This document shows, piece after piece, positions 2,379 to 27,367 of a DNA stretch of 64,000 bases; the first letter of the stretch is position 1, and each line of letters opens with the position of its first letter. The translations under genes were made by a program, and so were the position numbers. The stretch covers positions 4,285 to 68,284 of the forward strand of contig CALFOM010000095.1 of NCBI GenBank assembly GCA_937919685.1, written 5' to 3'. The stretch comes from an uncultured Phycisphaera sp. Lineage in GTDB: Bacteria > Planctomycetota > Phycisphaerae > Phycisphaerales > SM1A02. The notes below the pieces were generated by a model. It was not told where the DNA came from. It made no database searches and was given only the letters and a program-made list of their open reading frames with translations.

Positions 2379-5300
2379 TCAGAGCGAGGAGACGTCGACC
2401 GTAATCATCGAGATGCTGCCATCGCGTTCGAAGATCCCGCGTGCGGTCTCGGCGTCGATCGTGTCGCCCTCGATGATCGTAGTGCTTCCCGCCTGATCGG
2501 TCAGGTGGATGCGGGTGAGGCCATCACCTCGTTGATAGACGACCGGGACGCCGCACATCTGGAATCCGAGCCCGGGGGCCGGAATCGAGACGCGTCGGGC
2601 GGGCACTCGATCTCCGGCGGGGATCGACCAGTCTCCGTCGTCCGTGCGCCACTCTTCATCAAGGAGCAGGCTGGGAGCGAATCGGATTTTGCCAGAATCG
2701 AATCGAAGGCCAAGTTCCATTCGCCGGGTGATGAGTTCCTCCTTTACTTGTCCCGTCATTCCCGGTTGCTGGGCGCCGCGATCACCGGGGGTATGCGAGT
2801 AGGCATCGATCGGAAGGGCGCCGAAACGAGCCGCGGATCGCCGGAATCCCAGCCCGTCGCGGATGCGGTGGTACGAAAGATGAAGACGCTCGACCAGTTC
2901 TGCGGGGTCATCGGCATCTTCGGCGTGCTCAACGCATTCGCCTGCGGCAACCAGGAGTTTGGAGACCATGTGCCAGTAGGTGCAGCCGATTCCCTCGTAG
3001 CCGTACATGCCTCCGGATCGGCCGGTGAACCGGTGATGGTCGAAGATTCGTTCGTAGAGTTCGATCGTCTCGGTTCGATGAGCGTCTGCCGGACCGGCGA
3101 ACGACGGCTCGGTCTCGAGTTCGTCGAGCACGGCGGCGACGTCGCGCCGATTTCGGAGCGGCGTCGCGAAGCGAACGGTTCCAGCGCCATCGGTCTCGAT
3201 CAGGCGGGTGTCTCCGGATCGTACGAGTCCGGCCAAGAGCAAATTCGCCTTGAGATCCTCGGGGTCCAGGACACCCTTGTCGCAGAGTGGGGGGATGTGG
3301 CGAACCGGATAGAGCAGGAAGGTGTCGTGGTCGGTCCGATGCAGCGATGACCGGAAGAGCCGCTCAAGCAAATCGGCAGATTCGGAGGAATCGAGCGCCC
3401 CCGAGGAAAGAACCGCGACCTGTCCTTCGAGCATCTCGGGGAGATGGTGGACCGTGGCGGTGTCTTGGTCGAAGGCGACAAGGTTGTAACCGTGGTAGAG
3501 CCCGTCTTCCCGCCGGTTTGCCTTGATGGCATGATCAAGCCAAGTGATCGCGATGTCGCAGAGCGAGACCGCCCGCGATCCGCCGCAGGAGTCCGCAGAT
3601 GCCGTGGACGCGAGCCGATGGCGATAGGTCTCGAACGCACCGCCGAGACCGTCGAGAATCGTGCGGCGCTGCCGATCGCCGAGCGATGGATCATCGAGCA
3701 GTGATCGATGTTCATCGAGGATGCCGGTCACCTCGCGCATCCAGTCTGCGACTCGGTCGGTGATCCGGAGGTCGCCCCGGTGATTGGAGAAGAGGGACTT
3801 GAGGACGACGAGGTGTCGGCGGAGGTAACACGCGGTCACCATCGAAAGGCCGAAGCCGGCGAGGGCGTTGTTGGCATCGTTCCACTCTGGACGCTGGGTA
3901 TTCATCCAGATGCCGCCGTCGGGGACGAATGCCGAGAGTTTCGAAAGGACCGGGATCAGAAGCTTCTCGGCGAGCGTGACATGTACGACCTGGCCGTTGG
4001 CGTCGTGGACCAATCGGCCATCGGCGCCGATTCGATCGGCGCGATCGAGTGAGATCGCGTGGGCACGATCGTCAAAGGAGATCGTATTCCGTGGATCGGC
4101 GATGAGATCCGCGTGATCCGCGAGCCGGTAGGGCACATCGGCGTGGGAGAAGATGGAACGATCAAGCCAGGTATCGAGCCTCCCCGGTCCGGTCTGGAGA
4201 GAGAGTTCGAGAAGTCTTGTCAGGTAGCCGATCTGGTGATCACCCCAGTAGCCGATGTTGCTCCAAGGGTTATCCGGTTCAGGGGCCTCCCAGTCGATTC
4301 CTTCGCGGGTGATTCGATACGGGTTGAATCCGTCGGGCGTCGACGCGTTTAGGAACTTCGCGATGACGTGGTCGATCCAACCTGGACTGGAGAATGCGAG
4401 TGCCTCCCAGTTCTGAAAAATGTCCCGCCAGTTTCCTTCGAAAGTGAGCCGCCTCGCACCGTCGGCCTGCTTGACGCGGATGTTGAAGGCGTTCCAGGGG
4501 CGGCTTGGATCACCGTGGCGACGGCCGAACCAGATCGGTAGGTACTCCCAGGCGATTCGCTCCAGATTCGGATCGTCGAAGGACGCGGCTTCTTCGACCA
4601 GAGTGGCGCGGTCGACCCAGGCTTGATCGTCGCGAGACTCAAGCCATGCCCGGTGCAGGAGCGAAGTATCCGCATTGCGCTGGCGACAAAATTCGACCCA
4701 GTCCCGCCACGGAAGGTTGACGCCGTCGACGAAGACACCGCCGCGCATGTCATTGAAGAGGGTGTTGGTTCGGTGGTGGGCGTCGAGAATCGAATCACCG
4801 CTGCACTGCATGCCGTCGGTGTCCACGAGAATCGCGTCGATGGCTCTAGTGGTCTCGTCGATCTCGGCGGCGAGCTCGACGGCAAGGTTCGTTTCCGATT
4901 CCAATCGGCGATGCAGATCGGCAACCTGGGCCTGCGTGCGCCGGACGTCACTGACGATCGACCAGGTGGCGGACTCGTTGGGACTCAACGAGAGGGCGGA
5001 ATGGAGCAGGTACGCCGAGGAATGCCCCTTCAGCAGCGAGGTCGGTATGAAGATTCCTTCTCGAGCGAACGACTCGATCGCCTGCGAAGACAACGAGACC
5101 GTGCCGCCGGGGAGACCGGTCGACCAGACGGTCGTCGCATGGAGCGACTCCGCGGGTTCGGCCCGATCGCTCAACGCTGATTCCATGGAGATCGTGGCGA
5201 GTCTGGAGTCGATCGATTGCTCGGCCCGCGTGTAGGCATTGACGAGGCAACTCATGGTCTGCATCACACCGAGGCCGGCACCGCCCGCGACGAGTTCTCG

Positions 5301-5792
5301 AAGCCCGTCGACCACCTCGAAGTCGAGGGTCGTCGGCCCCGTACCCTCGCGTTCCAGAGTGACCGTTCGGACGAACCCCGAAGCCTCGCTGAATGCCCAC
5401 CATGCGCGGATTCGGAGTCCTATGACGGGATTCGTTTCCTCGAACACGATTCGGTCGCCGGATATGGAGCGAGCAAGATTCCGCGTGATGCCGTGTGTTG
5501 GTCGAGCGGAGAACGGCTCCCAGAGTGCGTCGCCGACGCGGATGCCAGTCCACGGCCCGGAGAAGGCATGGGCTTGGTGGATCAGGTCGTCGGTTCGATA
5601 TGGAAAGAGACAGTTGCCGTTGTTCACCCGGCCGGCGGTGAGCCCACCGTTGGAAGAGATGTAGAGCCAGTGGTCTGAGGGGCTCACCACCGTCAAGAGA
5701 AACGGCGGCATGCGATCGATGTCGGGGACGCGGTAGCACGCGACGCCGTCGATTTCGCAAAGCCCTTCGGTACGCATGGTTCCGGTGTTCAT
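2379..5792 (-). CDS. large (1137 aa) GH94-like / (alpha/alpha)6 glycoside-phosphorylase-superfamily protein; exact activity unknown
   Basis: ORF 2379..6074. The start is taken at the ATG at 5792 (MNTGTMRTEG...) because the upstream 94 codons are Arg/Asp-rich junk reaching toward the preceding gene. Motifs GNWRDIFQNWEAL and RPEWNDANNALAG resemble the G(F/Y)RDxxQD and DWNDxxN motifs of cellobiose/chitobiose-phosphorylase-type catalytic domains (recalled from memory). Confidence 0.7.
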   Translation of the reverse strand: MNTGTMRTEGLCEIDGVACYRVPDIDRMPPFLLTVVSPSDHWLYISSNGGLTAGRVNNGNCLFPYRTDDLIHQAHAFSGPWTGIRVGDALWEPFSARPTHGITRNLARSISGDRIVFEETNPVIGLRIRAWWAFSEASGFVRTVTLEREGTGPTTLDFEVVDGLRELVAGGAGLGVMQTMSCLVNAYTRAEQSIDSRLATISMESALSDRAEPAESLHATTVWSTGLPGGTVSLSSQAIESFAREGIFIPTSLLKGHSSAYLLHSALSLSPNESATWSIVSDVRRTQAQVADLHRRLESETNLAVELAAEIDETTRAIDAILVDTDGMQCSGDSILDAHHRTNTLFNDMRGGVFVDGVNLPWRDWVEFCRQRNADTSLLHRAWLESRDDQAWVDRATLVEEAASFDDPNLERIAWEYLPIWFGRRHGDPSRPWNAFNIRVKQADGARRLTFEGNWRDIFQNWEALAFSSPGWIDHVIAKFLNASTPDGFNPYRITREGIDWEAPEPDNPWSNIGYWGDHQIGYLTRLLELSLQTGPGRLDTWLDRSIFSHADVPYRLADHADLIADPRNTISFDDRAHAISLDRADRIGADGRLVHDANGQVVHVTLAEKLLIPVLSKLSAFVPDGGIWMNTQRPEWNDANNALAGFGLSMVTACYLRRHLVVLKSLFSNHRGDLRITDRVADWMREVTGILDEHRSLLDDPSLGDRQRRTILDGLGGAFETYRHRLASTASADSCGGSRAVSLCDIAITWLDHAIKANRREDGLYHGYNLVAFDQDTATVHHLPEMLEGQVAVLSSGALDSSESADLLERLFRSSLHRTDHDTFLLYPVRHIPPLCDKGVLDPEDLKANLLLAGLVRSGDTRLIETDGAGTVRFATPLRNRRDVAAVLDELETEPSFAGPADAHRTETIELYERIFDHHRFTGRSGGMYGYEGIGCTYWHMVSKLLVAAGECVEHAEDADDPAELVERLHLSYHRIRDGLGFRRSAARFGALPIDAYSHTPGDRGAQQPGMTGQVKEELITRRMELGLRFDSGKIRFAPSLLLDEEWRTDDGDWSIPAGDRVPARRVSIPAPGLGFQMCGVPVVYQRGDGLTRIHLTDQAGSTTIIEGDTIDAETARGIFERDGSISMITVDVSSL

Positions 5793-5908
5793 CGATTCTT
5801 CCGAGGAATGGAGACGATTGCGAAGTGTATCAGCGGCAGAACGCCGATCGTCAACGCTTTCTCGGAGGTCGATGTCGAGATTCCGTGCCGGTCGAGCCCG
5901 ATCGGGGC

Positions 5909-6964
5909 TCAGTTTGGAATCGTCACGCTCTTCCCGTCGGCGGATGCGGAATTCATGATTGCGTCGATCACTTTTTGCGTCGAGTGGGACATCGCTCCCC
6001 AGCCTGGCTGGAGAGGGGTCGCACCCCGCGCGATCTCGGAGAAGGTTCGCATCATCTCGACCTCCTGGATGCAATCCGGGGTGACGAGTCGTTCGATTTG
6101 CCGCTCGTGTATGAGGTCCTTCTCGGTGAGCCTCGACTCGGTCTCGAGATGAAGGCAGGCTTCCGTTGGACTTCCGATCACGAAGTCATCCATTCGCATC
6201 GTTCCGGTGGGCCCGCAGATCTCGACCCACTGACGGAGGGGGTGAACGAACGAACAGCTCAGGAAGGCATGGCGGTCTTCGTCGACTCCCGAAAAATCCA
6301 TCTCGGCACTTGTGTGTATCGGGACGCCGTTGTGCAGCCGATGGTGTCTGGCTCGGACCGCGTCGGGCATGGCGTCCATCGTTTCGAGGATGATCCGAAC
6401 CGAATACCAGGCGAGATCGCCGACGCAGCCAAGCGGCTCCGTCGATACGTCTCCGCGAATGTCCTGTGCAAAGAACGAATCATCCCCTCGAAAACTGAAT
6501 GCGCTGGTGATCAGATTCGGTTCTTTGCCGATGTCGGAGAGGCGGGACTTCAGCAGCTGCATCCGCGCGTGGTGCATGAACATGACGCCATCCATGAATT
6601 GCACGCCGGCATCCCTGCAGGCTTCGATCATCGCCTCGACGTCCGACGCGTTTGGTGCGACCGGCTTCTCGCAGAGGACATGCTTGCCGGCTCCCGCCGC
6701 GCGAATCGTCCATTCGCGGTGCAGGGTGGTGGGAAGGGGGATGTAGACGGCATCGACGTCGGGATCCTCCAGGAGCGCCTCGTAACTTCCGTAGGCTCGA
6801 TCTACCCGATGCTCGCTTGCAAAAGCCGTCGCCTTGGCGAGGTCTCGACTCGCGATCGCCAATGGATGTGCGTTCTCCGCGAGGTGCATCGCGCGAACGT
6901 TCTTCCTGGCGATCGACGCGGCTCCCAGCACTCCCCAACGACAGACTTTCTCAGGTTGATTCAT
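5909..6964 (-). CDS. Gfo/Idh/MocA family NAD(P)-dependent oxidoreductase
   Basis: Start MNQPEKVCRWGVLGAASIARK (Rossmann GxxGxxxIA). It also has YIPLPTTLH and the EKP motif (HVLCEKPVA). The start at 6964 follows AAAGG. Confidence 0.85.
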   Translation of the reverse strand: MNQPEKVCRWGVLGAASIARKNVRAMHLAENAHPLAIASRDLAKATAFASEHRVDRAYGSYEALLEDPDVDAVYIPLPTTLHREWTIRAAGAGKHVLCEKPVAPNASDVEAMIEACRDAGVQFMDGVMFMHHARMQLLKSRLSDIGKEPNLITSAFSFRGDDSFFAQDIRGDVSTEPLGCVGDLAWYSVRIILETMDAMPDAVRARHHRLHNGVPIHTSAEMDFSGVDEDRHAFLSCSFVHPLRQWVEICGPTGTMRMDDFVIGSPTEACLHLETESRLTEKDLIHERQIERLVTPDCIQEVEMMRTFSEIARGATPLQPGWGAMSHSTQKVIDAIMNSASADGKSVTIPN

Positions 6965-7047: not shown

Positions 7048-8175
7048 TCAATCGGTCGTGACGACCCGCATCCTGGTGACATCAGTGGCGCCTGGCTGGG
7101 CCGGATCGCGAGGCGGCGGCATCTGGACCAGTTGGGCATCGAGATGCATCGGCCTCCGCAGGTTGACGCGGACCTCGCCGCTCCCGTTGGCTTCCAGGCG
7201 AGCGGCCACGCGAGGCGGGACCGGTTCGGCAAGCCCGGGAGGAATACGGCGGGTGTATCGAACTGCGAGCACCGCGGTCTCCGCAACTCCGGTCGCCTCC
7301 AGCGCCGCCTGATCCACACTGGAGAGGGTCCAGGTCATGACCGTCTCGATCGGCGTTCCTTGCTCGAGGTTCGTCCAGCGGCTGGTCCAAGATGCTCCGA
7401 CGCCGACCGGTTGGTTCGGAATCACGGGTTCCGCAAGTCGCAGGATCGACGTGAGCCGCTCGACCTCGAAGATGTTTCGAGGACTGGCGGTCTCCAATCG
7501 GATCTGGATGCTGGTCGGGACCAGTCCGTAGCCCGAGAAATTCTGGGAGATCGCGGCGCCCGCGCATCGGGAGGCCGCGTTGTCCTGAACCCGTGCGTAG
7601 GCTCTGGCTCGTTCGATCACGGCGCCATTCGGCGCAAATGGCGATTTGATGGCGGTTCCGGTTGCACGGTTTTGGTCGGACTTCTCTTCGGCCTTGTCCG
7701 TCGCGGACTTCTTCGGTGGCTCGCGATCGGCATCGTTGATCGTCGCTTCGGGAATGCCCTCGGGCCTGATCATGAAGAGTCTTGCCGCTCCATTGAGCAC
7801 GCGCCATCGGGCTAAAGGCGTCGCGGAATCCTCGCTCGCCCGGATCTGTCCCTGAATCGTCCAGAATCGTTCGATTGGCGGACGCGACGTATTCACGAGA
7901 ACTGCCTTCGCGTCCTCTTTCAGATCGATGCCGTTCTCCAGCAATGTCGGAACGGTCCGAGAGGTTACCTGCAGCGTGCTCGCAGCATTACTCGGATCAA
8001 ACCATCGCAAGATGATCGGGCGGCCTTCGCCAAGATCGGTGACGGTCACGGACGGAATCAGATCACGTTCGATCTTGGTCGCCTGGGCAAAGATCGGCGA
8101 TGTAAAGAGTCCGACGGAAAGAATACCGATGGGGAATCGACGGATGGCAGACTTGAGATGGGTCATGTGGTTCAT
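7048..8175 (-). CDS. hypothetical secreted protein
   Basis: ORF 7048..8247. The likely start is MNHMTHLKSAIRRFPIGILSVGLFTSPIFAQA, a signal-peptide-like N-terminus (alternative ATG at 8166). No family recognised. Confidence 0.55.
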   Translation of the reverse strand: MNHMTHLKSAIRRFPIGILSVGLFTSPIFAQATKIERDLIPSVTVTDLGEGRPIILRWFDPSNAASTLQVTSRTVPTLLENGIDLKEDAKAVLVNTSRPPIERFWTIQGQIRASEDSATPLARWRVLNGAARLFMIRPEGIPEATINDADREPPKKSATDKAEEKSDQNRATGTAIKSPFAPNGAVIERARAYARVQDNAASRCAGAAISQNFSGYGLVPTSIQIRLETASPRNIFEVERLTSILRLAEPVIPNQPVGVGASWTSRWTNLEQGTPIETVMTWTLSSVDQAALEATGVAETAVLAVRYTRRIPPGLAEPVPPRVAARLEANGSGEVRVNLRRPMHLDAQLVQMPPPRDPAQPGATDVTRMRVVTTD

Positions 8176-8277
8176 GATGGAGAGGATGAACGAATTCGCC
8201 GTCGGAAACAAGTGAGATACCACTTTTCGCCGTTCTCGAAGACTCACTGCACCTCATCGGGGACGTTGGCTCTTCGG

Positions 8278-16361: not shown

Positions 16362-17837
16362 GTGAAGATTCTGTTTCCTGCCATCCTGACGGTCTGGATT
16401 GCCCTCACCTGCAGGAGTGGTGCGGCGGCATCATTCGATTTTCGGCTCTTCGAGGGTGCGGAGCGGGGTGATTCGAATGATCCCCGGGCTGCTCAAAGCG
16501 AGGGAATCAACCAAATCGATCAGGCGGACGCCACACTTCCCGATGGCCAGGTGACTCTTGAGTCGCCGTTTCCACTTCGAATTCGGGATCTGGAAGGTAC
16601 GACGCATTCCGGCAGGGTGACGCAGTTCGATGACCGGGGCCTTTCGGGAGAGATCGGGACCATTCCTTGGGTCGATCTCGCACCCGCGGATCGGTTTCGG
16701 ATCGGCCAAGAGGCCCTTCGAAAGAGTCGTCGGCATGATGCCGCGGGCCTTGGATGGCTCTTGTTCATGCTGCGCAGTACCGACTCTGGTGATTTCTCTG
16801 ACCGGGCCGAGAAGCTCCTTCGAGCCAAAGCCGGCGTCGACGCGGATCGGATCATCGCCGCGGCGGAGACGAGAGCGCAAGAAGTGCGCGTCAAGGCGGC
16901 GCAGGTTCTCTCGGCGGCGGAAACGGCGAAGCTCAAGCAGGGTCGACCACATCTGCATTCGGCATCCGTGGCGGCATGGCCGGTGCCGGATCCGATTCGA
17001 CAGAGTTCATTGGCCGAGCAACTCCGTGTCAAAGGCGAATCCGCTGCCGAAGGTCTTGGGCTACAAGGTGTCCGAACTACGTCGACGGTGGTGCTCGGAT
17101 TGGATTCCTTGGAGGCGCTGGCGCGGGACGGCGTCGCGTTTGACCGCTTGACGAGTGAGATCGCGCCGCGTCTCGGCTTGATGCCAGGACGCAATCCGTT
17201 TCCTGGCGCCCTGCTGGTGATGGAAGTCACCGATCACGACACCCTCCGGCTCATGGCGGGCACGATCTTCGATCACCAGGCTCCTCTCGATGATGATTCG
17301 ATTCTCTTCCCGACCGACGATGGGCCGTTCGTCATCATGGCGATGCCCGACCCGAGTCGGATCGCGGCGATCTCAGAGGCCATGTCCGGCGGAAATCCGC
17401 TCGAGATGCTTCGTTCCCTCGAGCGAGCACGAATCGTGGCGAGAGCCTGTCTGGTTCATGCCCACACTCGGCGGGCGCTCCCGGCCTGGTTGGTCGAGGG
17501 CATCGCGGAGTACATTGCTTCGACCTCGGTCGCAGAGGCGCCGATCGATTCGATCCGTCGCCGGCGGGCGTTGCGTTCGATGCGAAGCGGGCAACATCCC
17601 GGTTGGATCATTGGGCTCGATGGGAATGACCAAGGCTTTGATCTCGATGGTCTGGCGCGTGATGTCGCCTACGTTCTGGTCACCCGTTTGTTTGAGACCG
17701 ACCCGGGACTTCCGGCCGGTCTGATCAACGATCTCAAGAACGGCATGACGCCTGACCAGTCATTCCGTCGTCGAATGGGTGGCTCGATCGCCGCCTGGTT
17801 TGACGACAGTGCCGACTGGTTCCGATACAACGATTGA
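16362..17837 (+). CDS. secreted DUF1570 / peptidase-MA-like protein, probably catalytically degenerate
   Basis: GTG start and signal peptide MKILFPAILTVWIALTCRSGAAA. The C-terminal LVHAHTRRALPAWLVEGIAEYIAS resembles the HExxH...WLxEGxAEY arrangement, but the Glu is missing. Confidence 0.6.
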   Translation: MKILFPAILTVWIALTCRSGAAASFDFRLFEGAERGDSNDPRAAQSEGINQIDQADATLPDGQVTLESPFPLRIRDLEGTTHSGRVTQFDDRGLSGEIGTIPWVDLAPADRFRIGQEALRKSRRHDAAGLGWLLFMLRSTDSGDFSDRAEKLLRAKAGVDADRIIAAAETRAQEVRVKAAQVLSAAETAKLKQGRPHLHSASVAAWPVPDPIRQSSLAEQLRVKGESAAEGLGLQGVRTTSTVVLGLDSLEALARDGVAFDRLTSEIAPRLGLMPGRNPFPGALLVMEVTDHDTLRLMAGTIFDHQAPLDDDSILFPTDDGPFVIMAMPDPSRIAAISEAMSGGNPLEMLRSLERARIVARACLVHAHTRRALPAWLVEGIAEYIASTSVAEAPIDSIRRRRALRSMRSGQHPGWIIGLDGNDQGFDLDGLARDVAYVLVTRLFETDPGLPAGLINDLKNGMTPDQSFRRRMGGSIAAWFDDSADWFRYND

Positions 17838-19220
17838 CCGCGGCGGAACAATGATCAAGGTCGCGAAGAATGCTGCGGCGGCGAGCGCGAGGGCGAGGAG
17901 GTAGCTCGCGGTGACGCCCGGGGCGTAATTCGTCATGTCGGTGCCACCCAGCGCCTTGATCATGGTGGCGGAGACGACCACTGCGATATTCCCGCTCATG
18001 ATGAGCACCGTGAGCATCGAGCCACTGGCGAGGCCGACGTTGTTCTCGGGAATCGTCGCGATGCCTCCAGCCTGTGACATGGACCAGCCCCAAGAACATC
18101 CGAATCCGACGACGAGAAGGCCGATCGCGAGCCAGGGCGAGACGTCCGACATCCAGAAGATGACGCACGCCGCGGTCTGAATCGCCGTGGCGAAGAGCAG
18201 CATGAGCCGGGTGCCGATCCGGCGCTGAAGGACCGGCCCGAGAAAACCTGCGGCGGCGACCGGTACGCTCAAGTAGAGGAACTGGAAGCCTGCGGTCATC
18301 GGGTCTTCCTTGCGGACTTCCTGCAGGTACAGGGTGGTGGCGAAGATCAGGATGCACCAGCACGAGTTGCTCAGGCTGCCGCCCGTAAGGTAGCCCGCGA
18401 AGGTTCGATTCCCGAGAAGTCGGAGGTCGACGAGGGGCGTCTCCTGTCTGAGCTCGTGCCATGCGAACACCGCTAGGCTGAGAACGCCGCCGGCGATGAT
18501 GGAGAGTGACGTGGCGAGCGCCTGATCAGCGAGCCCGGCGACACCGATCGAGAGTCCGCCGATTCCGGTGGTCAGCAAGACGATGCCGATGAAATCGACG
18601 CGACCAGTCTTGGCATCCGGGTTCTTACTTTCTTTCGAGAGAATGAACACCAGGATGAACGCGACCGCCGAAATCGGCGGATTGATCAGGAAGACCCATC
18701 GCCAGTCGATCAGTTCGGTGAAGATGCCGCCGACTACGGGGCCGATCGCCATGCCCAGCGTCGCGACCCCAGTGAGAATCGACATGGTCTTCGGCAATTG
18801 TGATTGCGGCGTCGCCGCGCCGACCACCGCCGTCGACAGCGGAAACAGCAGCCCGGCGCCGATGCCCAACGCGATTCGCGAGACGACCAACTCGATGACC
18901 GAATTCGCCAGGCCGACCCAGACCGAGACGGCGCCGAACAGCACGATGCCCAACAGCAGGAGTCGCTTCCGACCGAACCGATCCCCAAGGGGGCCTGCGA
19001 TCGCGAGCACCACGGAGAATGAGAGGATGTACCCAGTGATCACCCACTGCAGGCTGTCCGCCGAGACGTTGAAGTCCGACGCCATGCGAGGGAGCGCGAT
19101 CGCCGTCGCGGTGTAGTCGATCACCACGAGCATCTGGGCCATGCCTGCAGCGATGATGAGCGCGAGGCCGGACATCGAGGAACGTATGCCTGACGGATCG
19201 TCAGTTTGGCGTTGGGTCAT
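17760..19220 (-). CDS. MFS transporter, DHA2 (EmrB/QacA-like) type, paralog 2
   Basis: ORF 17760..19292. The ATG at 19220 overlaps the stop of the upstream paralog (ATGA). It has LGDRFGRKRLLLLG (MFS motif A) and many hydrophobic helices. Confidence 0.85.
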   Translation of the reverse strand: MTQRQTDDPSGIRSSMSGLALIIAAGMAQMLVVIDYTATAIALPRMASDFNVSADSLQWVITGYILSFSVVLAIAGPLGDRFGRKRLLLLGIVLFGAVSVWVGLANSVIELVVSRIALGIGAGLLFPLSTAVVGAATPQSQLPKTMSILTGVATLGMAIGPVVGGIFTELIDWRWVFLINPPISAVAFILVFILSKESKNPDAKTGRVDFIGIVLLTTGIGGLSIGVAGLADQALATSLSIIAGGVLSLAVFAWHELRQETPLVDLRLLGNRTFAGYLTGGSLSNSCWCILIFATTLYLQEVRKEDPMTAGFQFLYLSVPVAAAGFLGPVLQRRIGTRLMLLFATAIQTAACVIFWMSDVSPWLAIGLLVVGFGCSWGWSMSQAGGIATIPENNVGLASGSMLTVLIMSGNIAVVVSATMIKALGGTDMTNYAPGVTASYLLALALAAAAFFATLIIVPPRSIVVSEPVGTVVKPGGDRATHSTTE

Positions 19221-20626
19221 GACGTCGTCCTCACAGGGTGCCTGCGCGGCACGATCAGGAATGCGGCGACGAATCCGATCGCCGCGAGACAAAGGGCGAA
19301 TAGAAAACTAGCGGCGACCCCTGGGCCATAGTCGATCGCCGAAGGACCACCGAGTTCCTTGATCATCGTCGCAGAAACAACCATCGCCACGTTTCGACTC
19401 ATGATCAGGACCGTCATCATCGAACCGCTTGCAAGGCCGAGATTGGCCTCGGGGATCGTGGCGATGCCGCCCGCTTGCGACATCGACCAGCCCCAGGAAC
19501 ATCCAAAGCCAACCATGAGAAGGCCCACGGCGAGCCATGGCGATACGTCCGACATCCACAAGAGGCTGCATGCCGCGGTCTGAATAGCCAGGGCGAGCAA
19601 CAGCATGGATCGCGTGCTGGTATGTCGTTGGAGGACGGGGCCGAGGAATCCGGCGATCGCGACTGGAATACTCAGGTACAGGAACTGGAAGCCGGCGGAC
19701 ATCGCGTCCTCCTTTTGGACTTCCTGAAGATAGAGCGTGGTGGCGAAGACCAAAACTCCCCAGCACCCATTGCTCAGACTCCCGCCGATCAGGTACCCGA
19801 CGAAGGTTCGGTTTCCGAGTAATCGAATATCGATCAGGGGAGATCGGTATCGGAGTTCGTGCCATCCGAACAAAATCAGGGTGACGCAACTCGCAAGAAT
19901 GATCGAGACCGATGTCACCATCGAGTGGTCCGCAAGATCCGCCAAACCGATGGAAAGCCCGCTGATTCCGATGATCAGGAGCAGAATGCCGACGACATCG
20001 ATGCGTCCCGTATCGGCATCTGGGTTACGGCTTTCGTTGGCAAGAAAGATGATGAGGAAAAACGCGATGGCGGCGATGGGAAGGTTGATAAAGAACACCC
20101 ATCGCCAGTCGATTAACTCGGTGAACACCCCTCCGACCACGGGGCCGAGGGCCATGCCGATCGTCGCCACGCCAGTGAGGAGCGACATCACCTTGGGTAG
20201 TTCTTCTCGCTTCCAACTCGCCGCGACCACGGCCACGGAAAGCGGAAAAATGATTCCGCCCCCGACGCCGAGGGCGACCCGCGCGATGATGAGCGTGAAG
20301 GCCGAGCCGGCAAGGCCGACCCAAGCCGAAACGCCGGCGAACAAGATGATTCCGAGAAGGAGGAGTCGCTTCCGGCCGAATCGATCTCCCAAGGATCCGG
20401 CGATCGCCAGGGTGATCGAGAACGAAATGATGTAGCCGGTTAACACCCACTGAAGGCTGTCGGCGGAGACTTTGAAATCCTCGGCCATCCGCGGCAGCGC
20501 GATCGCCGTCGCGGAGAAGTCGATCATCACCAGCATTTGGGACATGCCAGCGGCGACGATGAGGGCTAGTTTGGAGAACCGCGATGGTTCCTTCGTCGCG
20601 GAAGACTCACTTGTACCGCCGCTCAC
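19217..20626 (-). CDS. MFS transporter, DHA2 (EmrB/QacA-like) type, paralog 1
   Basis: The GTG start overlaps the ABC ATPase stop (GTGA). By eye it is collinear and roughly two-thirds identical with the downstream paralog, sharing the same LGDRFGRKRLLLLG and WRWVF motifs. Confidence 0.85.
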   Translation of the reverse strand: MSGGTSESSATKEPSRFSKLALIVAAGMSQMLVMIDFSATAIALPRMAEDFKVSADSLQWVLTGYIISFSITLAIAGSLGDRFGRKRLLLLGIILFAGVSAWVGLAGSAFTLIIARVALGVGGGIIFPLSVAVVAASWKREELPKVMSLLTGVATIGMALGPVVGGVFTELIDWRWVFFINLPIAAIAFFLIIFLANESRNPDADTGRIDVVGILLLIIGISGLSIGLADLADHSMVTSVSIILASCVTLILFGWHELRYRSPLIDIRLLGNRTFVGYLIGGSLSNGCWGVLVFATTLYLQEVQKEDAMSAGFQFLYLSIPVAIAGFLGPVLQRHTSTRSMLLLALAIQTAACSLLWMSDVSPWLAVGLLMVGFGCSWGWSMSQAGGIATIPEANLGLASGSMMTVLIMSRNVAMVVSATMIKELGGPSAIDYGPGVAASFLFALCLAAIGFVAAFLIVPRRHPVRTTS

Positions 20627-21564
20627 GCCCTCGACTCCACCACTCGTCCATCCTCGAGTCGGACGATCCGATCCGCATATTCGGCGACTGCGGGATCATG
20701 GGTGACCATGACGATGGTCAGACCCGCATCGTGCCGCTTTTTGAGTAGGTCGAGGATGTCTCTCCCCGTCGTGGCGTCGAGATTTCCAGTTGGTTCATCG
20801 GCCATCAGAATGCTGGGTTCGCTCGCAAGCGCGCGGGCGATCGCGGTTCGTTGTCGCTCACCGCCCGAGAGTTGGCTCGGTCGATGACGAAGCCGATGGC
20901 CGAGCCCGAATTCTTCGAGCGTGTGACGCGAGATTGCGGCTTGCGGTCCGTGGCGGAGCCGCGAGCGTTCCGCAAGCACCTGTCCGAGTTGGAAGAGCAC
21001 CACGCCGATGGCGGCGCCGAGCACGCCACAGGTCAAGGCCAGCAGTGCGATCTTGGATGGGGTGGGGGCATCAGCGGTGGGGAGAATCTCGACACCGAAG
21101 GTCGAGCCTACGGCGGCACCGACGCCACCGCCGATCACCGCGGCCAAGAGCGGCAACGTCGCGGAGAACCAGCGGTTGGGTACGAGGCAAGGAAGCATCG
21201 CGTTCTCGAGCACCGAGAGTTCGGGGAGCAGATGGTAGAACTGGAAAACGAAGCCGACGCTTCGGTTCCGGTAGGTATTCAGTTCGGCGCCGCCGAAGTC
21301 GCTGACCCGTCGGCCTTCGAAGCGGATCATGCCACCGTCGCGATCGGGTCGGTCAAGTCCACCAAGCAGATGGAGCAGGGTGCTCTTGCCGCTCCCGCTG
21401 GCGCCAAGAATCGCGATCCACTCGCCGGATCGAACTTCGATGGATGCATCCTTGAGAACCAGCACCGGGACTCGACCCATTCGATACGTCTTGCGCAATT
21501 CGCTCGCGACGAGCACGGGCTCGCGGGCGGCGTCTGAGGAAGATTGGTCGTGAGAGGCGTTCAT
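20623..21564 (-). CDS. ABC transporter ATP-binding protein (LolD/MacB type) with an internal double hydrophobic insertion
   Basis: ORF 20623..21948. The ATG at 21564 overlaps the permease stop (ATGA). Walker A GASGSGKST, Q-loop FQFYHLLP, signature LSGGERQR, Walker B ILMADEPTGNLD and H-loop VTHD are all present. About 70 extra residues sit between ENAMLPCLVP and EEFGLGHRLRHRPSQ. Confidence 0.85.
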   Translation of the reverse strand: MNASHDQSSSDAAREPVLVASELRKTYRMGRVPVLVLKDASIEVRSGEWIAILGASGSGKSTLLHLLGGLDRPDRDGGMIRFEGRRVSDFGGAELNTYRNRSVGFVFQFYHLLPELSVLENAMLPCLVPNRWFSATLPLLAAVIGGGVGAAVGSTFGVEILPTADAPTPSKIALLALTCGVLGAAIGVVLFQLGQVLAERSRLRHGPQAAISRHTLEEFGLGHRLRHRPSQLSGGERQRTAIARALASEPSILMADEPTGNLDATTGRDILDLLKKRHDAGLTIVMVTHDPAVAEYADRIVRLEDGRVVESRA

Positions 21565-23261
21565 TCGTATCGAAGTGCTTTGACGGGGTCGGTGTCTGCG
21601 GCCTTGGCGGCGGGAATCGCGGCCCCGAGGACGCTGAAGACGATGGCGCCAGCCATCGTGAGGATGGCGCTGGACCAATCGACCTGATTGGGGATGGAAT
21701 TGAAGTAATAGACCGCGGGATCCCACATCAGGAATCCCTGGTGAAGAAGCAGGGCCGTACCGACGCCGGACAGAAGCAGGGCGCCGACGATCGACAGGAG
21801 GGTGCGAAGCATGCCGCCGCGCAGGCCGGCGTGGATCGCGGTGGCCAACATGACGGCCGCCAGTGAGAACGCGGTGATCCAGGTCCAACCGGGGGCCGGT
21901 TCGCCCATGGCTTCGTGGATGGCGTTGATGTTGACGACCACGGTCCAACCCAGCAGAGCGCCGAGGACCGCGCCGACGAGACCGATCACCAGGCCGTAGG
22001 CGAGAAAGACCCCGAGCACGCCTGGTCGCGAGGCTCCGATCGCCCGAAGGATGCCGATGTCTCGCGTCTTCTCGTGGACGATCGACCAGAAGATGGAGAG
22101 CACGAGGCCCGCGCAGACGAGATAGACGATCGAGAACAGGATCCGCATCAACTCGCGTTCCTTCTCGACCGGGCCGATGAGATCACGCAACTGCTCCCGC
22201 CAGGTGCGGATACCCACGAAGGCTTGGTCGGGCGGGCGGATGGTCATGGCGTCTTCGTCGTCGATTCTCGCGGCGAATGCGGCGTAGGCGAGATTGACGG
22301 CATCACGCAACGCTTCGGGCGAGACGCCGTCGGCCGCGCGGACCAGGACCATCTGCACCCGCGCGGGATAGGTTCCGATGCGTTCCAATTCGCCGGTCTC
22401 GTCGAGCAGTCGAGTGTCGTAGATCGGGGCGGCTTCGAGGCCGAGCATGCGTTGGCCGGTCTCCAGCCCGATCATCGCCCGGCGGGAGTCGATCTGATAG
22501 ACGCCAGACTGGAATTCGTTGGCGACATCGAATCGTCGGTTGTCCGGTTTTTCGAGGGCGCCGCTCGTTGAGATCGGGATGAGGGTGATCTCGACATCTC
22601 GGAACGGCATCCAGAACGCCGGCGCCTTCACCTCGTAGGAGCCGTCCATCCTTCGGACTTTTGCGGCGGAGTCGATTTCGACACCGAGGATGACGCCCGG
22701 ATCACCGCCAGCGGATCCGGGGTCGAGTCGCGGCAACTCGTCGAAGACTGGAATCTCCAGACCGTTCATGTCTTCGGCGAATTTCCGCACTTCCGGCGGA
22801 GTGTCCGTCCAGACCAGACTGTCCTTGAAATCGACGACCTGATCGAAACTCGCGGGATCGATTCCCCACACCTGGACGCCTTCGGTTCGGTTCCCGTAAG
22901 GAAGTTTCAAGAGTCCGAAGCTCTCGACTACCGGCGTCGCCGCCAGGGCTTCCGGGCGTGACTCAATCTCCTCGATCAACAGGTCGTAGTGAGGGATGCC
23001 CGGATCGGCGTACCGGATGATGACGTCGCCCATCAAGGTCCGGCCCGAATTCAGCAGCATGTCGAGAAACCCCGACATGACGCTTACCACGATGATCACC
23101 AGGCCGACGCAGAGGGCGACGGCGGCCACCGCGATGAGGGGAATGATCCGGCTGCCGAGGTATCGATTGGCGAGGAGCGGTTGGTACACGAGGATCTGGA
23201 CTCGCGGGAGGCGGAAGCGTAGGGAATCAGGTCGCGGGTGGCCTGACTTCGTCGACATCAT
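21561..23261 (-). CDS. ABC transporter permease, FtsX/LolC-E/MacB family
   Basis: The order is an N-terminal TM, a roughly 300-aa periplasmic domain, then a C-terminal FtsX domain (TRDIGILRAIGASRPGVLGVFL ... AAIPAAKAADTDPVKALRYE). There are extra hydrophobic segments before the last TM. Confidence 0.8.
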   Translation of the reverse strand: MMSTKSGHPRPDSLRFRLPRVQILVYQPLLANRYLGSRIIPLIAVAAVALCVGLVIIVVSVMSGFLDMLLNSGRTLMGDVIIRYADPGIPHYDLLIEEIESRPEALAATPVVESFGLLKLPYGNRTEGVQVWGIDPASFDQVVDFKDSLVWTDTPPEVRKFAEDMNGLEIPVFDELPRLDPGSAGGDPGVILGVEIDSAAKVRRMDGSYEVKAPAFWMPFRDVEITLIPISTSGALEKPDNRRFDVANEFQSGVYQIDSRRAMIGLETGQRMLGLEAAPIYDTRLLDETGELERIGTYPARVQMVLVRAADGVSPEALRDAVNLAYAAFAARIDDEDAMTIRPPDQAFVGIRTWREQLRDLIGPVEKERELMRILFSIVYLVCAGLVLSIFWSIVHEKTRDIGILRAIGASRPGVLGVFLAYGLVIGLVGAVLGALLGWTVVVNINAIHEAMGEPAPGWTWITAFSLAAVMLATAIHAGLRGGMLRTLLSIVGALLLSGVGTALLLHQGFLMWDPAVYYFNSIPNQVDWSSAILTMAGAIVFSVLGAAIPAAKAADTDPVKALRYE

Positions 23262-24018
23262 CCTCGATCGGACGGCTTCGTGTCGCGATGCCGAACTCGA
23301 TCAGCAGATCGGGCGGTGTGCCGATGTCGATGATCTTGATTCTCCCCGTCCAGGCGACGGAATCCGGGTTCAACATGCCGAGCTTCGGTGCGACCATGGT
23401 CGCAGTCACATCAGCCCGGATACAGGGCCCCAGCGGTCTTCCGGTGTCGGCATCCAGTCCGCTGGGGACATCGACCGCGACGATTGTCGCCGCGCTCTGG
23501 TTGATGAAGTCGACGAGTGCCTCGGCCTCTCTTCCGATCAGGGGTCGGTTCAATCCAGTGCCGAAGACCGCATCGACCACGAGGGTGTTTTGGAGATCTG
23601 GCCAGGATTCGGGTTCCGTCGGTCTCGAGGGGTCGGGTTTGCCTCCGACCAAAGAAGTGGAGGAGCGAACCGGAAGGCCCATCTCCAAGACGATTCGTTG
23701 GTTGATGGCGGCATCAGTCCCCGCTCGGGAGCATCCCGTGGTGACGATTCTGACCTTGATGCCACGATTGGCGAGCAGACGAGCGACCGCCCATCCATCG
23801 CCGCCGTTGTTTCCAGTGCCACAGACGATGGTGACTGCCGCGAGGTCGGCGTCGATCCGAACCTGTTCGACGAGATGGGCGATCCCGATCGCGGCATGCT
23901 CCATCAGGAGGATCCCCGGCATCCCCAGCCGTTGGATCGCGGTCGCATCGAGCAGCCGAGCGGCGGCTCGATCGAGCACCAAATCAAACTCAGGCGGATA
24001 TTCCGAAGTCCCGGCCAT
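23227..24018 (-). CDS. NAD(P)H-hydrate epimerase (YjeF N-terminal domain only)
   Basis: This is the lower part of ORF 23227..24705. The start is MAGTSEYPPEFDL at 24018. Motifs include CGTGNNGGDGWAVARLL, DAVFGTGL and VDVPSGLDADTG. Its 3' end overlaps the permease start by 35 nt. Confidence 0.8.
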   Translation of the reverse strand: MAGTSEYPPEFDLVLDRAAARLLDATAIQRLGMPGILLMEHAAIGIAHLVEQVRIDADLAAVTIVCGTGNNGGDGWAVARLLANRGIKVRIVTTGCSRAGTDAAINQRIVLEMGLPVRSSTSLVGGKPDPSRPTEPESWPDLQNTLVVDAVFGTGLNRPLIGREAEALVDFINQSAATIVAVDVPSGLDADTGRPLGPCIRADVTATMVAPKLGMLNPDSVAWTGRIKIIDIGTPPDLLIEFGIATRSRPIEDDVDEVRPPAT

Positions 24019-24096
24019 CGGTGGATTGTATGGGACGCGGCTTCGAGGCCATCGGTCGACCCGACGATCCGTGTGGACTCGTACCATGCGAGACCC

Positions 24097-26188: not shown

Positions 26189-27367
26189 TCAGTTCAGGAG
26201 CAGTTGCAACTCGATCGTCACGGTCTCATCGCCGGTCAATTCTGTCAGTCGCTTCCCACTGGCCCGCCAGCGGAAGAGCATGTCTGTCAGATTCTCATCA
26301 AGTCTGTCTTCCCCACTCTTGACCACCAGACGTGCTCGGATGGGTTTTCCGGTCCGGTCGAACTCAATCCGAGCCACCGGATTGAAACTGGGCTGGTAGC
26401 TGAGCCAGGAGACGAGAGGAATGTTCGGCCGACGCGTTCGGATGTTCAGGCCCTGCGCGGCAAGGGGTTTCCCCTGCTTCCACTCCGAGGCCGGCACCCT
26501 GGTCAGGCTGGTCGCCTCGGCATCCTTGTCCGCTTCGTTTCCTGGTTCTTCAGAGGGCTCGCCTGGACCGTCGCCTTTGCCATCGCCGTCGCCGTCGGAT
26601 TCCGCGGGTTCGGGTTGCGGCTCCGGAGACGGTTGGGGTGTCGGAGTTGGTTCGGGGGAGGGCTTCGGCGCAGGATCCGGGGATGGCTCCGGGGTCGGAT
26701 TCTCTTCGGTCGGTGATTCTGGTGTGACGTCTTCCGTTGAGTCTTCTTCCGTTTTGTCTTCGTTCGTATCGTCCTTGGTCGTCGACTGCTCATCAGGAGT
26801 GGTGGTCGGATCGGGCGTGGCTTCGGTGTCTGAGGTACTGGACTCCTCGATCGTCTTCGAGTCGACGGGTTCCGGTTCCACTGTGGGTTGGATCTTCTCA
26901 TCGAGGAGAACCTCCGGATCGATGAGGATCTCAGGCAACTCCGTTTCGGGACTCGGGATCGTCATGGCCGGCGCCGCCGCAGAGGGCTGAGCGGATAACG
27001 GGATCGCGGGTGCGGCCGCTCGAGCGACCGCGGCGGACGGGTTGCTGGCAGCAGGGCTTCCGCCGCCCCCGGATCGCGGCGACGTGCTCATCGCGGCCTG
27101 TTCGACTTCCGACAGTCGGGCGAGATGTTCGACGTATTCTTCGTAGCCGATCCAAGTGAGGGTCTCGGCGTCACTCTCGTCGATGCCGAGCGGTTCGGCC
27201 GCCGTCTCTTCATCCTCCTGCTCGGTCGGGATTTCATGGTTGATCGCCTGAGACTGCCCGGTCGCGGTCGAGGCCCACAGGAAGATCGCAACGGCGATGG
27301 CATGCAAGAGTATCGACAGCAAGACCGCGGTCGGAACAGGGAGTGAATCTCTCGTAGCTCGGTGCAC
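26189..27367 (-). CDS. TonB-like energy-transducer protein
   Basis: The order is an N-terminal TM anchor (AVLLSILLHAIAVAIFLWA), a long Pro/Glu/Thr/Ser-rich spacer (PEPSPDPAPKPSPEPTPTPQPSPEPQPEP), and a C-terminal domain resembling TonB_C (ARIEFDRTGKPIRARLVVKSGEDRLDENLTDMLFRWR). The start codon is GTG. Confidence 0.65.
   Translation of the reverse strand: MHRATRDSLPVPTAVLLSILLHAIAVAIFLWASTATGQSQAINHEIPTEQEDEETAAEPLGIDESDAETLTWIGYEEYVEHLARLSEVEQAAMSTSPRSGGGGSPAASNPSAAVARAAAPAIPLSAQPSAAAPAMTIPSPETELPEILIDPEVLLDEKIQPTVEPEPVDSKTIEESSTSDTEATPDPTTTPDEQSTTKDDTNEDKTEEDSTEDVTPESPTEENPTPEPSPDPAPKPSPEPTPTPQPSPEPQPEPAESDGDGDGKGDGPGEPSEEPGNEADKDAEATSLTRVPASEWKQGKPLAAQGLNIRTRRPNIPLVSWLSYQPSFNPVARIEFDRTGKPIRARLVVKSGEDRLDENLTDMLFRWRASGKRLTELTGDETVTIELQLLLN

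Follow-up and report, generated by a model that had tools for sequence, protein, structure and literature searches.

Can the ATPase of an ATP-binding cassette (ABC) transporter be an integral membrane protein? The question is raised by a gene pair in a 64-kb window from an uncultured Phycisphaera sp., the window being the whole stretch of DNA analysed, to whose numbering all positions refer. The pair encodes a LolF/LolCE-type permease and a LolD-type ATPase, each with an extra hydrophobic segment. ABC nucleotide-binding domains (NBDs) are the textbook soluble motor, reaching their membrane partner only via coupling helices. On balance, we regard the pair as probably a lolF-lolD-type (type VII, MacB-fold) ABC transporter with two lineage-specific transmembrane (TM) hairpins, one in each subunit. 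We see it as an even call whether the ATPase is an integral membrane protein whose hairpin packs on the two extra helices of a six-TM FtsX permease, with rotation also sent into the bilayer. The two genes are as follows; permease residues are given in the 566-aa numbering (from ATG 23261) unless the 542-aa numbering is stated.

21561–23189 or 21561–23261, minus strand: LolF/LolCE-type FtsX permease, 542 aa from GTG 23189 or 566 aa from ATG 23261.
20623–21564, minus strand: LolD-type ABC ATPase, 313 aa, with a Pfam ABC_tran match and NCBIfam LolD TIGR02211 as top match.

The permease gene comes first, and its stop codon shares 4 bp (ATGA) with the ATPase start, the overlapping arrangement of a lolF-lolD operon. 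As the sequence-only reading had stated, the catalytic motifs of the ATPase are intact. GASGSGKST (Walker A, aa 54–62), FQFYHLLP (Q-loop, aa 107–114), LSGGERQR (signature, aa 232–239), ILMADE (Walker B with the catalytic Glu, aa 252–257) and VTHD (H-loop, aa 287–290) were all read in the translation, PF00005 was matched with E = 7.4e-30, and the motif residues are invariant in 110 homologs. The best PDB matches are LolD chains (E about 1e-54). Comparison with solved structures by phmmer aligned residues 3–112 of Acinetobacter LolD with residues 17–128 of the ATPase, and LolD 123–221 with ATPase 210–307. Between these blocks the ATPase has 81 residues where LolD has 10, giving an insert of about 71 aa; the roughly 70 residues first proposed were borne out, for a span (20965–21177) that proved slightly narrow. 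The insert begins 18 residues past the Q-loop glutamine, after the short helix SVLENAMLPC, and prolongs two helices of the helical subdomain, between which a loop of 10 residues is normally found. The Q-loop-to-signature spacing is consequently 125 here, versus 52–60 in insert-less orthologs at the same syntenic position.

The ATPase was modelled with AlphaFold2 from a 110-sequence alignment, giving a mean predicted local distance difference test score (pLDDT) of 87.5 and an intact canonical NBD. The insert folds in the model as two helices, aa 132–159 and 169–205, connected by a nine-residue turn (pLDDT 77–95 over the block). Its parts are listed below with their Kyte-Doolittle (KD) maxima.

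20938–21180, minus strand: ATPase insert, aa 129–209, between the SVLENAMLPC helix after the Q-loop and the helix preceding the signature motif.
21088–21171, minus strand: ATPase hairpin helix 1, aa 132–159, an AlphaFold2 helix (pLDDT 77–95), Gly-rich, KD 1.75.
21061–21087, minus strand: ATPase hairpin turn, aa 160–168, ILPTADAPT, non-helical in the model and predicted periplasmic.
20950–21060, minus strand: ATPase hairpin helix 2, aa 169–205, an AlphaFold2 helix, KD 2.55, Hessa sum -1.83.

Helix 2 has a hydrophobic core (aa 170–196) followed by the basic stretch ERSRLRHG. Foldseek comparison of the NBD with those of MacB and LolD gave TM-scores of 0.84–0.92 on the target. On the query the score is lower, about 0.64, which would fit an insert of roughly 70 residues that the targets lack. 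Among 90 ATPases, G145, G149 and G153 are kept in 92%, 89% and 80%, respectively, and G183 is also conserved, a pattern typical of tightly packed TM helices.

The permease matches Pfam FtsX and MacB_PCD. In its AlphaFold2 model (86 sequences, mean pLDDT 84.9), an elbow helix is followed by TM1, a large periplasmic domain, TM2 with the neck tryptophan, a coupling helix and TM3, and then by a short shoulder helix, two extra helices, a loop and TM4. According to the model and Foldseek, this is the MacB-type fold plan of LolDF and LolCDE with an extra hairpin added onto it. The top Foldseek matches are the LolE chains 9rlc_E and 9rld_E (TM-score on target 0.77–0.79, E about 1e-21 to 1e-20). By phmmer, LolF 251–346 aligns gap-free with permease 352–447, and LolF 362–411 with permease 517–566; the 69 permease residues that stand where LolF has 15 amount to an insert of about 54 aa, close to the roughly 55 of the sequence-only reading, whose span (21723–21887) was again slightly narrow. 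Family models delimit both inserts: the permease insert is where the Pfam FtsX match ends, and both NCBIfam matches, LolD and lolCE, are broken into pieces at the inserts. The relevant parts of the permease are listed below.

22041–22067, minus strand: permease coupling helix, aa 399–407 (AlphaFold2 helix 375–383 in the 542-aa numbering).
21933–22028, minus strand: TM3, aa 412–443, after the coupling helix (AlphaFold2 helix 388–419 in the 542-aa numbering).
21714–21920, minus strand: permease insert, aa 448–516, in the TM3–TM4 shoulder or 'door-bar', located by phmmer against LolF 9w37_A and LolE 7arh_E.
21819–21890, minus strand: extra helix TMa, aa 458–481 (AlphaFold2 helix 434–457 in the 542-aa numbering), pLDDT 91–97, KD 1.81.
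21744–21812, minus strand: extra helix TMb, aa 484–506 (AlphaFold2 helix 460–482 in the 542-aa numbering), pLDDT 91–96, KD 2.28, Hessa sum -0.98.
21678–21743, minus strand: shoulder loop H507-x-G-x-L-x-WDPxVYYF, aa 507–528, aligned to 7arh_E 360–411.

The coupling region EKTRDIGILRA aligns gap-free to LolF 296–306. The extra hairpin sits after the short helix NINAIHEA and immediately before the shoulder loop, which is kept; H507, G509, W513, D514, P515, V517, Y518, Y519 and F520 are invariant in the family, and WDPxVYYF aligns with the LolE shoulder loop FL..DIYFIDF. The neck tryptophan of TM2 (W354), likewise invariant, aligns with LolF W253, so that both the tryptophan and the aromatic shoulder loop of the Lol permeases are recognised here, at the level of alignment. 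In LolCDE and LolDF, TM3 and TM4 lie outside the TM1/TM2 core, and the TM3–TM4 shoulder or door-bar reaches the lateral gate and is the principal hydrophobic contact site for the acyl chains of the lipoprotein (PMC8333309, PMC13575116, PMC5985334). The LolE shoulder loop binds acyl chains, and single substitutions in it abolish Lpp binding (PMC8333309). This element is acyl-chain pocket, lateral gate and site of inhibitor-resistance mutations at once, and since the permease hairpin interrupts it, the hairpin bears on how substrate entry is organised in Planctomycetota.

The sequence-only reading had described both inserts as pairs of hydrophobic helices, and the models agree, predicting hairpins of membrane-spanning length with charges that fit a TM topology. 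Over 19 residues, KD values peak at 1.75 and 2.55 in the two ATPase segments and at 1.81 and 2.28 in the two permease segments, versus 2.1–3.1 in the four canonical TMs of the permease; on the Hessa scale, the ATPase segments sum to about +3.3 and -1.8, the permease segments to +1.8 and -1.0, and the canonical helices to between -3.4 and +0.3. By hydrophobicity, all segments other than ATPase helix 1 look like ordinary TM segments. Two segments with KD of at least 1.6 were found in 75 of 89 insert-bearing ATPases, and two with KD of at least 1.3 in 88 of the 89. Mean charges (K+R versus D+E) across 90 ATPases are 1.68 versus 0.04 in the N-terminal flank, 0.34 versus 1.83 in the turn and 3.6 versus 1.3 in the C-terminal flank. 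Across 86 permeases the corresponding values are 0.40 versus 1.77, 1.44 versus 0.06 and 0.59 versus 1.13, the turn between TMa and TMb being a basic RGxxLR loop. Both patterns fit the positive-inside rule, with the ATPase hairpin in-out-in and the permease hairpin out-in-out; no other topologies would keep the remainder of the two proteins on their usual sides of the membrane. TMa is accordingly predicted to run from periplasm to cytoplasm and TMb from cytoplasm to periplasm. From sequence and models we infer that both hairpins span the inner membrane, with six TM helices per permease and two per ATPase, or 16 in a putative LolD2F2 complex. If true, an NBD with a TM hairpin in its helical subdomain would be a new way of building an ABC transporter, and a complex in which four of 16 TM helices come from the ATPases would be a new ABC architecture.

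The two hairpins differ in distribution. One genome per species was scanned, yielding 274 genomes with a permease relative, and the best 80 loci, most of them labelled Phycisphaerales, Phycisphaerae or Planctomycetota, were retrieved. The EKTRDIG-to-WDPxVYY spacing was taken as the proxy for the permease insert and the Q-loop-to-signature spacing as that for the ATPase insert. The former is 116 (116–118) in all 76 scorable loci, and the permease hairpin is therefore in all of them; the latter is 121–131 (insert) in 24 of 74 loci and 52–60 (no insert) in the other 50. The hairpins had been put forward as a co-occurring pair, and this claim falls: the permease hairpin is family-wide, and the ATPase hairpin is limited to a subset nested in that family. 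An ATPase hairpin without the permease hairpin was never seen, which is uninformative because all recovered permeases carry the latter. The permease-then-ATPase order is kept in 74 related loci, and, by tblastn synteny over the 80 loci, the following gene neighbours the permease in genomes with and without the ATPase insert.

23227–24033, minus strand: YjeF_N (NAD(P)H-hydrate epimerase-like) gene, upstream of the permease, Pfam YjeF_N with E = 1.5e-39.

The YjeF_N–permease–ATPase synteny common to both kinds of locus indicates that insert-bearing and insert-less ATPases are orthologous. Orthologs with and without the hairpin at the same locus offer a natural comparison of how much freedom the subdomain needs.

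In a neighbour-joining tree of the permeases, those paired with hairpin-bearing ATPases form a large clade (L001–L022 in the tree) and a small one (L023, L032 and L051). The small-clade inserts were not detected above shuffled controls by a hidden Markov model (HMM) built from the large clade alone. As far as sequence allows, the ATPase insert may have been gained once, then have diverged rapidly and been lost in places, or it may have arisen at this site more than once. The permease hairpin presumably came first, or is at least more widespread, with the NBD hairpin added in a subset of lineages. Insert-bearing ATPase homologs of 300–330 aa form about 90 clusters at 90% identity, drawn from ENA, JGI, NCBI and Logan and reaching down to about 50% identity, and 89 such proteins have Q-loop-to-signature spacings of 113–139 (mode 125). 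Conservation is lower in the insert, with a majority-residue frequency of 0.43 versus 0.77 in the NBD core. In the four closest genomes, the only comparisons used since L004–L013 are unreliable (an indel upstream of the Q-loop, and saturation), the ratio of non-synonymous to synonymous divergence (dN/dS) of the hairpin is 0.03–0.08 at dS 0.6–0.8, against 0.03–0.06 for the core. The ATPase insert is thus under strong purifying selection, and we regard both hairpins as conserved and selectively constrained.

Candidate sources of the ATPase insert were also considered. A common origin with the permease insert was rejected, BLASTP of one against the other giving E = 4.4. Fusion of a neighbouring gene for a small membrane protein into lolD was rejected as well, the hairpin HMM matching no such gene; searched against open reading frames (ORFs) of at least 40 aa in the 80 loci and the window, it found only insert-bearing ATPases and weak compositional matches to permease TM pairs. 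An exhaustive search of representatives with ATPase aa 100–240 gave one full-length match running through the insert (P0049) and two fragments. No independent lineage with such an insert was seen among the matches of this search, which is blind to non-homologous inserts, and a long Q-loop-to-signature spacing was looked for among the 150 matches, where just one short intermediate was found. The top match of the insert-region search, P0241 (5007 aa), was discarded as no relative; its 35 matched stretches lie in Gly/Ala-rich repeats and are compositional. At the hairpin site, the related ATPases P0113, P0116 and P0252 (254–276 aa) have a lone hydrophobic stretch some 20 residues long (in one case WYWYLLAAAGLLPAFILEE), which could be a precursor or a remnant of the hairpin.

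Judging by record titles, the large-clade hairpin genomes come from ocean surveys (TMED, ALOHA, FRAM, ANT, SP, MED), and lakes or sediments (Baikal, Zurich, Mendota, Kivu, Lac Pavin, Loclat) are the source of many insert-less orthologs. The titles suggest that the ATPase hairpin may divide along marine versus freshwater lines. L047, L061, L072, L076, L077, L078 and others are labelled Chitinophaga, Bifidobacterium, Candidatus Kuenenia, Isosphaeraceae or Singulisphaera; on metagenome-assembled genomes with a Phycisphaerales-type locus, such labels are probably taxonomy-label or binning errors.

How might the two hairpins be arranged? In an NBD, it is the helical subdomain that turns when ATP binds and that lines the coupling groove. 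LolD contacts two helices of LolF with its Q-loop region, namely the coupling helix and the elbow helix at the membrane surface (PMC13575116). By analogy, the insertion point in the ATPase would adjoin the Q-loop groove on the membrane-proximal face of the NBD, and this site would place the hairpin, rising into the bilayer at the periphery of the transmembrane domain (TMD), beside TM3, TM4 and the extra permease helices. Crosslinking work on MalK is said to have shown that residues just past the equivalent helix face the membrane subunits. Through the NBD hairpin, the helical subdomain would stay permanently attached to the membrane part, and the hairpin could form a second mechanical link, passing ATP-driven rotation of the subdomain to the peripheral helices that bear the lipoprotein-binding shoulder loop. 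The permease hairpin, for its part, probably enlarges or buttresses the lateral-gate and shoulder region, and the whole may be pictured as a putative LolDF-like extractor with a widened peripheral TM layer. Likely consequences would be an obligatory and stoichiometric association of LolD with the membrane, and ATP-dependent rotation of the helical subdomain that is restricted or re-routed. Such a protein also raises a question of biogenesis, namely how a hairpin located midway in a cytoplasmic domain is inserted into the membrane. We speculate that, with its short periplasmic turn and Gly-rich helix 1, the hairpin is small enough to insert with no need to translocate a long segment.

Several findings weigh against this reading. 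Both proteins miss the curated NCBIfam cut-offs of the families that match them best: the ATPase scores 226.7 bits against 307.75 for LolD TIGR02211 and 196.7 against 360 for LolD NF008639, and the permease 166.7 against 362.45 for lolCE TIGR02212. The TIGR02211 match is in two pieces, its alignment being interrupted by the insert, and the TIGR02212 match is in three stretches. ATPase helix 1 is marginally hydrophobic (KD 1.75, Hessa sum about +3.3), and the inserts of the small clade (L023, L032, L051) are Ala/Gly-rich and often score as one segment. Lastly, no clear interface signal was found among permease residues that differ according to whether the partner ATPase bears the hairpin or lacks the insert. 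One such position is permease aa 417 (393 in the 542-aa numbering; about 22011–22013), at the cytoplasmic end of TM3, which is Trp in 42 of 45 permeases with insert-less ATPases and also in the small hairpin clade, and Gly in 17 of 17 large-clade permeases, a comparison confounded by phylogeny. The change from Trp to Gly could have created space for the ATPase hairpin, or it could simply mark the clade.

The missing interface signal is what would be expected if the ATPase hairpin were transmembrane but independent of the permease hairpin, serving as a membrane anchor, as a docking site for a third membrane partner or, through its glycine zipper, in the clustering of complexes. In about 50 of 74 genomes the permease hairpin occurs without an ATPase hairpin and hence has a function of its own, and GxxxGxxxG is a general motif of helix-helix packing. 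The ATPase hairpin is always accompanied by the permease hairpin, although this says little for the reason given above, and insertion by the coupling groove puts it next to the TMD periphery in any case. We consider such an independent role plausible but unlikely.

The arrangement described above also presupposes a Lol-type transporter. The closest matches in sequence and fold are LolDF of Acinetobacter (9w35, 9w36, 9w37) and LolCDE of E. coli (7arh, 7mdx, 9rlc). As in LolDF, one permease gene precedes lolD, the order typical for lolF-lolD (PMC11784454), and all ABC motifs are present. The elbow helix, the periplasmic Sabre/Porter-type domain, the coupling helix, the shoulder and the C-terminal helix are shared with both systems. 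Unlike them, the present pair has a hairpin of about 54 residues in the shoulder, giving six TM helices rather than four, another of about 71 residues in the LolD helical subdomain, and a periplasmic domain longer by about 100 residues. MacB, the founding type VII member (5lil, 5lj9), has a similar NBD fold (TM-score on target about 0.86) and the same four-helix FtsX core, with TM3 and TM4 outside and connected by a shoulder. The MacB NBD is soluble and fused N-terminally, however, and its shoulder is a short loop; here the NBD is a separate gene, and neither an adjacent gene for a membrane-fusion adaptor nor, at the locus, TolC partner genes were found, at odds with a MacAB-TolC system. Within the MacB superfamily, FtsX permeases of the BceAB, YbbP and ADOP types (8–10 TM) likewise exceed four TM helices. 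They owe the additional ones to a duplicated FtsX module and to linker helices, whereas here the extra pair is a hairpin within the TM3–TM4 shoulder of one module. Among NBD subunits anchored in the membrane, the nearest precedent is TagH of TagGH, the teichoic-acid exporter of B. subtilis, in which the NBD is also a separate subunit (PMC11466899). TagGH is of type V, and TagH has a single C-terminal TM helix leading to an extracellular domain (PMC11466899), unlike the hairpin here, which lies inside the NBD fold with both ends predicted to return to the cytoplasm. A full-text literature search, incomplete for subscription journals, turned up neither an ABC NBD with an internal TM hairpin nor a six-TM single FtsX module. 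Both inserts are also absent from the solved structures of LolD, LolC, LolE, LolF and MacB, and conserved in the clade.

Could the pair instead be another MacB-superfamily transporter that releases no lipoproteins, its substrate or partner explaining the extra helices? The hairpins would remain real in that case. The missed equivalog cut-offs are compatible with this, as is the periplasmic domain, which exceeds those of LolC, LolE and LolF by about 100 residues. No LolA-binding hook was identified in the permease; the region corresponding to this periplasmic beta-hairpin, which recruits LolA, varies and has many indels in the family alignment. Two MFS genes, translationally coupled downstream, could also speak for a different substrate. 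Set against these points, Lol proteins are the top matches in every search, the gene order is that of lolF-lolD, the shoulder-loop motif and TM2 tryptophan are conserved, no gene for a MacA- or DevB-type adaptor is found among the adjacent Pfam-annotated genes, the MFS neighbour occurs only in the closest relatives, and the chromosomal context is of a housekeeping kind. A non-Lol function therefore strikes us as improbable, to much the same degree as an independent hairpin.

A further alternative is that the ATPase insert does not cross the membrane and is an amphipathic or hydrophobic arm at the surface, a re-entrant loop, or a segment packed on cytoplasmic parts of the permease. Helix 1 is Gly/Ala-rich and of marginal hydrophobicity, the small-clade inserts are still less hydrophobic, and the single stretches of about 20 residues in P0113, P0116 and P0252 can only be surface or re-entrant. 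Each helix of the hairpin nevertheless has 26–27 consecutive apolar residues, enough to cross a bilayer; the conserved acidic residues and prolines of the turn are ill suited to the interior of a membrane, and both cytoplasmic flanks are basic, the positive-inside pattern. We rate a non-spanning insert as somewhat less probable than either of the preceding alternatives. An origin of the inserts in faulty assembly, a frameshift or gene calling is refuted by recurrence and can be set aside, both inserts being in frame, that of the ATPase recurring in about 90 protein clusters and in 24 species-level genomes from independent assemblies, the permease insert in 76 of 76 scorable loci, and synonymous divergence being high and non-synonymous divergence low; misassembly, raised as a concern at the outset, is thereby excluded. 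From sequence and structural models, the pair is most likely a LolDF-like transporter with a six-TM permease, to which a subclade of mainly marine origin adds an NBD anchored in the membrane. It should interest mainly ABC-transporter mechanists and those studying envelope biogenesis in Planctomycetota, where the process is poorly known.

Nearly all homologs of the permease begin at MYQPLL, the position of GTG 23189, making this the likelier start; judged from the alignment, the true protein is probably the 542-aa form. The ORF from ATG 23261 would run 35 nt into the 3' end of the YjeF_N gene. By Pfam, the neighbours of the locus are YjeF_N, MFS, GT2 and SurE, and those directly downstream are as follows.

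17760–20626, minus strand: two tandem MFS_1 transporter genes, Pfam MFS_1 with E about 1e-56.

The GTG start of the first MFS gene overlaps the ATPase stop (GTGA), and the MFS genes are probably co-transcribed with the permease-ATPase pair. By tblastn synteny over the 80 loci, the MFS neighbour is restricted to the closest relatives, which have one copy; on this evidence it does not appear to be a conserved part of the transporter system. The tandem genes are paralogous and encode 469 and 510 aa, and a single MFS gene is apparent in L001–L009 and L014, with none in more distant relatives. One copy in the closest relatives and none farther away suggests that the window contains what appears to be a recent tandem duplication.

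The wider context is that of a housekeeping chromosome, with genes for ClpB/ClpC-like proteins, GyrA, SurE, a PD40 (TolB-like) protein and glycosyltransferases. Long ORFs without a Pfam match lie at 16362–17837 (plus strand) and at 2379–6074, 7048–8247 and 26189–27367 (minus strand), one of them encoding 1231 aa. The N-terminus of the 491-aa ORF at 16362 resembles a signal peptide, and the 392-aa ORF at 26189 contains a long low-complexity region rich in Pro, Glu and Thr.

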